The notes under the pieces: model-generated
The model's database searches: none
What the model saw: only the letters and a program-made list of their open reading frames with translations
What the model was told of the DNA's origin: nothing
Origin: Escherichia coli
GTDB lineage: Bacteria; Pseudomonadota; Gammaproteobacteria; Enterobacterales; Enterobacteriaceae
DNA: 64,000 nt
NCBI RefSeq assembly: GCF_003334315.1
Contig: NZ_QOWR01000010.1
Direction: 5' to 3' (one strand)
Program-made: the position numbers and the translations under genes
Shown here: piece after piece, positions 58,289 through 58,625 of the stretch
Layout of the letters: the number at the start of each line of letters is the position of its first letter
How positions within the stretch are numbered: the first letter of the stretch is position 1

Positions 58289-58625
58289 GCCGGATGCGGC
58301 GTAAATGCCTTATCCGGCCTACGTTCGGCAACGGTTGTAGGCATGATAAGACGCGCAAGCGTCGCATCAGGCATCGTGCACCGATTGCCGGATGCGGCGT
58401 GAACGCCTTATCCGGCCTACGTTCGGCAACGGCTGTAGGCATGATAAGACGCGCAAGCGTCGCATCAGGCATCGTGCACCGATTGCCGGATGCGGCGTGA
58501 ACGCCTTATCCGGCCTACGTTCGGCAACGGCTGTAGGCATGATAAGACGCGCAAGCGTCGCATCAGGCATCGTGCACCGATTGCCGGATGCGGCGTGAAC
58601 GCCTTATCCGGCCTACAGTCAGCAA
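58289..58625. repeat. tandem array of about 3.4 copies of a 98-bp composite REP/BIME unit between aceK and aceA
   Basis: Near-identical units start at 58289, 58387, 58485 and 58583 (partial); each holds two REP palindromes; this is why the ORF track shows duplicated identical small ORFs here. Confidence 0.9.

Follow-up and report, generated by a model that had tools for sequence, protein, structure and literature searches.

A rare 3.5-unit allele of the BIME-2 array between aceA and aceK in Escherichia coli

In E. coli, REP and BIME elements in the spacer between the glyoxylate-shunt genes aceA and aceK have been known from the time of the operon's sequencing in the late 1980s. Two classes of composite element are relevant to this spacer. 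BIME-2 elements combine z2 and y units joined by short linkers and occur in multiple tandem copies whose number varies from strain to strain, whereas BIME-1 elements combine z1 and y units, are present as a single copy, and contain a long L linker, often with an IHF site, to which the IHF binding of the family belongs (Ton-Hoang et al. 2012, PMC3333891). At the DNA level, BIME-2 elements are transcription-independent gyrase sites that are cut mostly in their Y units, and the aceA-aceK BIME-2 of K-12 itself carries 8 ciprofloxacin (Cfx), 2 RifCfx, 0 microcin, and 2 oxolinic acid Topo-seq cleavage sites (PMC6379681, supplement DS3). At the RNA level, hairpins formed by REP sequences withstand 3'-to-5' exonucleases and can participate in Rho-dependent termination (PMC6061677). 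A related system with an RNA product is REP325, the six-unit Y-l-Z2 array of K-12 from which naRNA4 was defined (Qian et al. 2015, PMC4550694). Both the BIME-2 type of the aceA-aceK element and strain variation in copy number are thus already known (PMC3333891), and the allele described here is ordinary strain variation and no new element. The new facts are descriptive, namely the frequencies of the alleles together with the rarity (0.2%) and recurrence of the 3.5-unit form. We consider it highly probable that this array is a BIME-2 in the transcribed spacer of aceBAK and that its rare 3.5-unit allele arose from the 2.5-unit allele by duplication of a whole unit; its function would be of the type seen across the family.

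The window, that is, the whole 64,000-nucleotide stretch of DNA that we analyzed, contains the aceBAK operon on its minus strand. Upstream of the array, in operon order, lies aceA (58639..59943, minus strand), which encodes an isocitrate lyase of 434 aa (NF011645, 803 bits); its mechanical open reading frame reaches 59958, and we give the shorter form given that relatives are annotated at 1305 nt and the NF011645 alignment begins at residue 6. The gene downstream is aceK (56524..58260, minus strand), which encodes an isocitrate dehydrogenase kinase/phosphatase of 578 aa (NF002804 equivalog, 944 bits), and aceB lies at 59973-61592, also on the minus strand. Because the aceK reading frame extends up to 58260 and that of aceA from 58639 onward, the spacer is 58261-58638, and its 378 bp, the length given in the initial annotation, are occupied by the array. 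TRF, run on 57500-59500, returned one tandem array at 58286-58632 (no strand assigned; period 98, 3.5 copies, 97% matches, 0% indels, score 645), which places the earlier estimate of about 3.4 units at 58289-58625 within a few bases of the true extent. An independent repeat finder recovered three in-register copies of 151 nt at 98-bp spacing.

The array consists of three full units, each made of Y, a 14-nt linker, Z2, and a second 14-nt linker, followed by a terminal Y. More precisely, a full 98-bp unit comprises a 34-nt Y (GCCGGATGCGGCGTGAACGCCTTATCCGGCCTAC), a linker (GTTCGGCAACGGYT), a 36-nt inverted Z2 (GTAGGCATGATAAGACGCGCAAGCGTCGCATCAGGC), and a linker (ATCGTGCACCGATT), so the description of near-identical units with two inverted palindromes each was accurate. 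Unit 2 (58384-58481) and unit 3 (58482-58579) are identical, unit 1 (58286-58383) differs from both at three bases, and the partial unit 4 (58580-58638) reaches into the aceA stop codon. There are 7 palindromic units in total, 4 Y and 3 Z2, in the order Y(+), Z2(-), Y(+), Z2(-), Y(+), Z2(-), Y(+). Closest to aceK is a Y unit (58289..58322, plus strand) that carries GTAAATGCC in its loop and has 2 mismatches to the Y consensus; it is followed by Z2 unit 1 (58337..58372, minus strand) and Y unit 2 (58387..58420, plus strand), both of which match their motifs with 0 mismatches, and by Z2 unit 2 (58435..58470, minus strand), another motif match. Y unit 3 (58485..58518, plus strand) and Z2 unit 3 (58533..58568, minus strand), likewise motif matches, lie in the duplicated unit. 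Y unit 4 (58583..58616, plus strand) is nearest aceA and in the mRNA starts 22 nt past the aceA stop codon. At the other end the final hairpin of the mRNA stops 28 nt short of the aceK AUG, and a unique 25-nt leader (58261..58285, minus strand), which is common in sequence to the 182-, 280-, and 378-bp alleles and holds a Shine-Dalgarno-like GAGGG, separates the array from the aceK start codon. Mechanical reading frames of 67-78 aa within the array were dismissed because they consist of REP sequence and a period of 98 bp is not divisible by 3.

Several features assign the array to the REP family and to BIME-2 within it. A REP is an imperfect palindrome of ~35 bp, able to fold into a stable hairpin, that has GTAG/CTAC at its foot; here the Y units end in CTAC and the Z2 units begin with GTAG on the plus strand. 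Across the 64-kb window the Y motif has 9 matches and the Z2 motif 5, compared with 0 for either in 100 dinucleotide-preserving shuffles of the window, and both motifs are dispersed. REP-matching places are present in all 5,426 of 5,426 complete E. coli genomes, with at least 10-51 per genome (median at least 25) among the matches listed. The array is wholly intergenic, lying between the aceA stop and the aceK start, and it shows alternating inverted Y and Z2 units, 14-nt linkers, tandem copies, and a unit number that varies among strains. It is a BIME-2 of textbook anatomy.

In MG1655, the end of aceA (4218413) and the start of aceK (4218596) enclose a spacer of 182 bp. The initial annotation had put this length at about 182 bp and had estimated roughly two extra units on that basis; the figure was correct, and the spacer in the window exceeds that of MG1655 by exactly 2 x 98 bp, K-12 having the smaller number of units. 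The two alleles share the locus, the Y and Z2 units, the linkers, the aceK leader, and the 22-nt tail after aceA. They differ in that K-12 has Y-Z2-Y (1.5 units, 3 palindromic units) whereas the window has Y-Z2-Y-Z2-Y-Z2-Y (3.5 units, 7 palindromic units), and in the Y unit nearest aceK, which carries GTAAACGCC and CCAGCC in K-12 and GTAAATGCC and CCGGCC in the window.

Counting units in other E. coli strains, as had been proposed, yields spacers from 48 to 378 bp, of which 280 bp is the commonest. Allele shares were estimated from two evenly spaced samples of ranked matches over the 5,426 complete genomes (96 informative rows), with spacer lengths taken from representative genomes. The 280-bp spacer with 2.5 units, present in BL21(DE3), REL606, ATCC 8739, and C, makes up ~48% of the sample. 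It is followed by spacers of 182/183 bp (~19%; K-12, O157:H7), 48 bp with no REP (~14%; UM146, an O2:K1:H7 APEC strain), 124 bp (~10%), 215 bp (~5%; Nissle), 85 bp (~3%), and 228 bp (~1%). Together with the window allele there are at least 8 length alleles in E. coli (48, 85, 124, 182/183, 215, 228, 280, and 378 bp). A short-flank query found the 378-bp, 3.5-unit spacer in 11 of 5,426 complete genomes (~0.2%), a count that is not exhaustive since the query ranks full-length single-piece matches first, by coverage times identity. Arrays of more than 3.5 units at aceA-aceK were absent among the top-ranked matches from these 5,426 genomes, and the 3.5-unit allele is the largest class found at this locus among them. 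The 1.5 units of K-12 are a minority state and 2.5 units, carried by about half of the sampled genomes, are the E. coli norm; the window is thus just one unit over the common allele. When compared with the 280-bp allele (BL21(DE3), REL606, ATCC 8739, strain C, and AH65), the window allele is identical base for base except for one 98-bp unit, and the 280-bp allele, with one unit fewer, represents its immediate ancestor state. In addition, because ~14% of the sample has a REP-free 48-bp spacer, the BIME is dispensable for the operon. In APEC E18055 this short spacer (locus positions 401-448) contains another GC-rich hairpin, GCCCCUUUCCGUAAGGCGAGGGGC, on the mRNA strand.

The locus was also compared among species, with one genome per species and the conserved 3' end of aceA as the query, which returned 11 enterobacterial loci. 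E. albertii NBRC 107761 has a 542-bp spacer (locus positions 4752-5293) with ~11 Y/Z2 units at a period of ~91 bp, E. whittamii has a 308-bp spacer with 6 units, and two further Escherichia species have spacers of 198 bp and 116 bp. Citrobacter, Kluyvera intermedia, and one Enterobacteriaceae genome carry two REP-like palindromes of another kind in 92-101 bp, and Pluralibacter, Enterobacter, and Kluyvera genomosp. 1 have palindromes of the CCCTCTCCC/GGGAGAGGG type in 75-128 bp. The scan thus indicates that a stable palindrome of some kind after aceA is general and that the variable-length BIME-2 array is specific to Escherichia.

The palindromic units of the window are predicted to fold strongly on the mRNA strand. 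Single-unit hairpins range from -14.8 to -19.5 kcal/mol (z -4.3 to -5.1), with 0 shuffles equally stable; Y unit 2 reaches -19.5 kcal/mol (z -4.4), Z2 unit 2 -14.8 kcal/mol (z -5.1), and Y unit 1 -17.7 kcal/mol. The spacer region of 420 nt folds at -206 kcal/mol (z -8.6). By analogy with K-12 and the REP family at large, we infer that the palindromes of the mRNA would form stable hairpins directly after aceA and that these would block 3'-to-5' exonucleases, so that the aceB-aceA segment would be protected once the transcript has been terminated or cleaved downstream. The Y units would act in the DNA as a transcription-independent gyrase site, with four Y targets in the window rather than two. 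The suggestion in the initial annotation that such arrays can bind gyrase and IHF stands here for gyrase, on the Topo-seq evidence from the K-12 locus (PMC6379681), and fails for IHF, the consensus of which is absent from the spacer. Under this proposal aceK would be kept low by other means, namely an intrinsic terminator inside aceK and poor initiation of translation.

For K-12 or B strains, PMC5435950, citing Chung et al. 1993, gives the products AceB:AceA:AceK as ~0.3:1:0.003, with aceK far below aceA, and attributes the low expression of aceK to premature termination inside the gene. An internal 3' end in aceK is conserved (PMC10687069). In the window we find an intrinsic-terminator-like hairpin at 57922..57901 within aceK, followed by the U run CUUUUUAUCU, and it coincides with the 3' end of the counterpart of AceK-int (57893..57977, minus strand), an sRNA in the MG1655 annotation whose alignment is identical to K-12. 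This hairpin is likely to be the site of the published premature termination. Chung and colleagues are also said to have found, in 1993, that inefficient translation contributes to the low level of aceK.

With regard to translation, a fold is predicted at 58236-58326 on the minus strand (1633-1720 in locus L001) in which the aceK Shine-Dalgarno and AUG (CUAAAUGCC) pair with GGCAUUUA, which is the loop side of the aceK-proximal Y unit. Its energy is -37.6 kcal/mol, compared with -17.7 kcal/mol for the Y hairpin alone, and the structure is kept in the centroid. The same fold is predicted in K-12 with one G-U pair; it is absent from the predictions for phylogroup-B2-like strains with the 215-bp and 48-bp alleles, the latter of which leaves a stronger Shine-Dalgarno, UAAGGAGAGG, free. 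Pairing of this kind might partly explain the poor translation reported for aceK.

The initial annotation raised the question of whether copy number affects the expression of aceA relative to aceK. A literature search on aceK, aceA, and REP found no paper on copy number at aceA-aceK. At both ends of the array, next to the aceA stop and to the ribosome-binding site of aceK, the 280- and 378-bp alleles do not differ in sequence; the 182-bp allele of K-12 shares the leader and the tail on the aceA side with them but carries two substitutions in the aceK-proximal Y unit. Because the ends are unchanged, the extra unit only adds two internal hairpins, and from the sequence we expect its effect on the aceK/aceA ratio to be at most small. 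The opposing hypothesis is that copy number is a tuning knob, such that more Y/Z2 hairpins would increase attenuation or processing, lower AceK:AceA, and shift the isocitrate branch point on acetate. Espeli, Moulin, and Boccard reportedly found in 2001 that BIMEs between genes attenuate downstream transcription, which would favor this hypothesis, as do the existence of at least 8 length alleles at the locus and the presence of a palindromic repeat of some kind at this position in every sampled genus of Enterobacteriaceae. However, the causes published for low aceK lie elsewhere, in termination inside aceK (PMC5435950) and reportedly in inefficient translation. Furthermore, copy number does not alter the ends of the array near the aceA stop and the ribosome-binding site of aceK, one REP hairpin generally suffices to stall exonucleases so that the effect should saturate, and the expanded allele is rare and scattered, as would be the case for neutral or slightly deleterious products of slippage. 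We therefore regard the tuning hypothesis as unlikely.

A second hypothesis would view the units as genes for naRNA4-like RNAs that are processed from the aceBAK transcript, bind HU, and condense the nucleoid, in which case the expansion would raise their dosage. Rfam RF02564 (naRNA4) matches the spacer three times on the minus strand, which is the aceBAK mRNA strand, at 58340-58417, 58438-58515, and 58536-58613, each scoring 85.6 bits where the gathering score is 59.5, and each match corresponds to a Y-linker-Z2 pair. The source of the model is moreover REP325, an array of six Y-l-Z2 units that belongs to the same class (PMC4550694), and the two loci are alike in being tandem Y-linker-Z2 arrays in a transcribed spacer. 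Three more Y/Z2 pairs of BIME-2 type in the window exceed the gathering threshold of the model (67-80 bits), at 28060-28130, 32289-32359, and 41961-42031. Because RF02564 also matches these other BIME-2 elements, and in effect fits any Y-Z2 pair, a match indicates the Y-Z2 class and not naRNA4 function; RF02564 behaves as a general BIME-2 model. REP325 (naRNA1-6, between yjdM and yjdN of K-12) also differs from the window array in having six units at another locus and experimental HU binding and condensation, whereas the aceA-aceK array is known from sequence, and a discrete RNA of ~77 nt with HU binding and a part in nucleoid condensation has been demonstrated for REP325 alone (PMC4550694). 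Finally, aceBAK is repressed by IclR under most conditions, which also speaks against such a source of nucleoid RNA. This hypothesis is as improbable as the tuning one. Very unlikely, in our view, is the broader proposition that unit number sets AceK:AceA through graded Rho-dependent attenuation or RNA processing and that the expansions are adaptive, or that they add acetate-specific, HU-binding, naRNA4-like RNAs.

Comparison of flanking sequences sheds light on how the extra unit arose. AH65, which has 2.5 units, shows only 2 differences from the window in 13,000 flanking bases, and many other genomes align with 24 kb of the window at 100.0% identity, their span being exactly 98 bp less. Conversely, the three assemblies with a spacer identical to that of the window (NT1F25, Rosetta2-DE3, and BL21-RIPL) have 82-102 substitutions relative to it in ~12.7 kb of flank, and Rosetta2-DE3 differs from BL21(DE3), a 2.5-unit strain, at 1 of 12,825 bases. 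The 11 genomes with the 378-bp allele fall on at least 5 flank haplotypes and their internal unit variants differ. In particular, the 3.5-unit genomes 90-3040, SBF45, and M15 carry other unit variants than the window; units 2 and 3 are again identical in 90-3040 and M15, and the three units of SBF45 can be told apart by linker substitutions. Since AH65 is nearly identical in its flanks and has 2.5 units, the simplest reading of these sequences is that the extra unit is a recent and recurrent 98-bp duplication on several backgrounds. The 3.5-unit allele would then be derived from the common form with 2.5 units, one 98-bp unit having been duplicated as a whole, probably by replication slippage or unequal recombination between identical units. 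Recombination mediated by the REP-associated transposase TnpA(REP) has been proposed for copy-number variation of BIME-2 elements (PMC3333891) and is a possible alternative route, the sequence being compatible with either.

It might instead be argued that the third full unit is an artefact of assembly and that the true spacer is the 280-bp, 2.5-unit form to which a perfect repeat copy was added by the assembler. This would account for the extra unit being a perfect copy of its neighbor, for the great rarity of the 3.5-unit allele (11 of 5,426 genomes), and for the 2.5 units of genomes with nearly identical flanks. It would also fit the two assemblies from one project, Rosetta2-DE3 and BL21-RIPL, which are unlike the other sampled B-strain assemblies (BL21(DE3), REL606, C41, C43, BLR, and BL21 TaKaRa) and have unusual junctions beside the rrnE operon. 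Both leave the BL21(DE3) gene order right after yjaB/rrf (Rosetta2-DE3 at locus 25300-26000, BL21-RIPL at locus 25600-26900), one of them continuing from yjaB to tRNA-Cys, tRNA-Leu, and yecA and the other from rrf to sseA, which suggests collapsed or mis-joined rRNA operons or else real rearrangements. Because of these junctions, Rosetta2-DE3 and BL21-RIPL are weaker evidence for the extra unit and may contain an assembly error at the array. Nevertheless, several laboratories have produced assemblies with the 378-bp allele, which is found on at least 5 haplotype backgrounds, and the distinguishable units of SBF45, which are beyond any error of copy counting, indicate that genuine 3.5-unit arrays exist. 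The array is just 347 bp long, a distance that long reads span easily and paired short reads largely, and the arrays of E. albertii and E. whittamii at the same site are even longer. We accordingly judge an artefact in the window to be quite improbable and retain the interpretation of a whole-unit duplication.

Other classes of element can be dismissed briefly. A BIME-1 shares the inverted REP palindromes and the intergenic location but has a single copy and a long IHF-binding linker, whereas the array has Z2 units, 14-nt linkers, and tandem copies, and the spacer 58261-58638 contains neither a Z1 unit nor the IHF consensus WATCAANNNNTTR; the same lack of the consensus led us to reject IHF binding for the array. 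A CRISPR array, which the initial annotation had rightly set aside in favor of a repeat family, was rejected because the intervals between Y units are identical stretches of Z2 and linkers, so that whole 98-bp units repeat with no unique spacers. No intrinsic (Rho-independent) terminator was found in 58261-58638 by the terminator scan, both of whose sites fall inside aceK, and a search for promoters in the same spacer found none. Elsewhere in the window, the IHF consensus has 9 matches compared with 2.7 expected. One of these, TATCAACAAGTTA at 61716-61728 on the minus strand, lies upstream of aceB, near the position described for an IHF site of the aceBAK promoter.

The expansion of the aceA-aceK BIME-2 matters little beyond bookkeeping, and the allele series might serve as a typing marker or as a natural test of BIME length against operon polarity. 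The surroundings of the operon contain further strain differences. A 524-aa reading frame at 54981-56555 on the plus strand, which has no NCBIfam match, is convergent with aceK, the 3' end of which it overlaps by 32 nt. The annotation of AH65 names it a type III effector toxin of the ShET2/EspL2 family (arpA/espL4 locus), its counterpart is a pseudogene in BL21 and NT1F25, and SBF45 and M15 have a longer gene (2187 nt, 728 codons). At the other side of the operon, the window and AH65 share ~520 bp at 63368-63887, located between yjaB and the 5S rRNA gene and annotated in AH65 as yjaA, that are missing from BL21(DE3), Rosetta2-DE3, and NT1F25; yjaA is a presence/absence marker in phylogroup typing. 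Further Rfam matches above threshold are a lysine riboswitch at 43947-44143 upstream of lysC, the sRNA STnc430 at 41746-41895, and the 5S rRNA gene at 63895-64000, which is cut by the end of the window.
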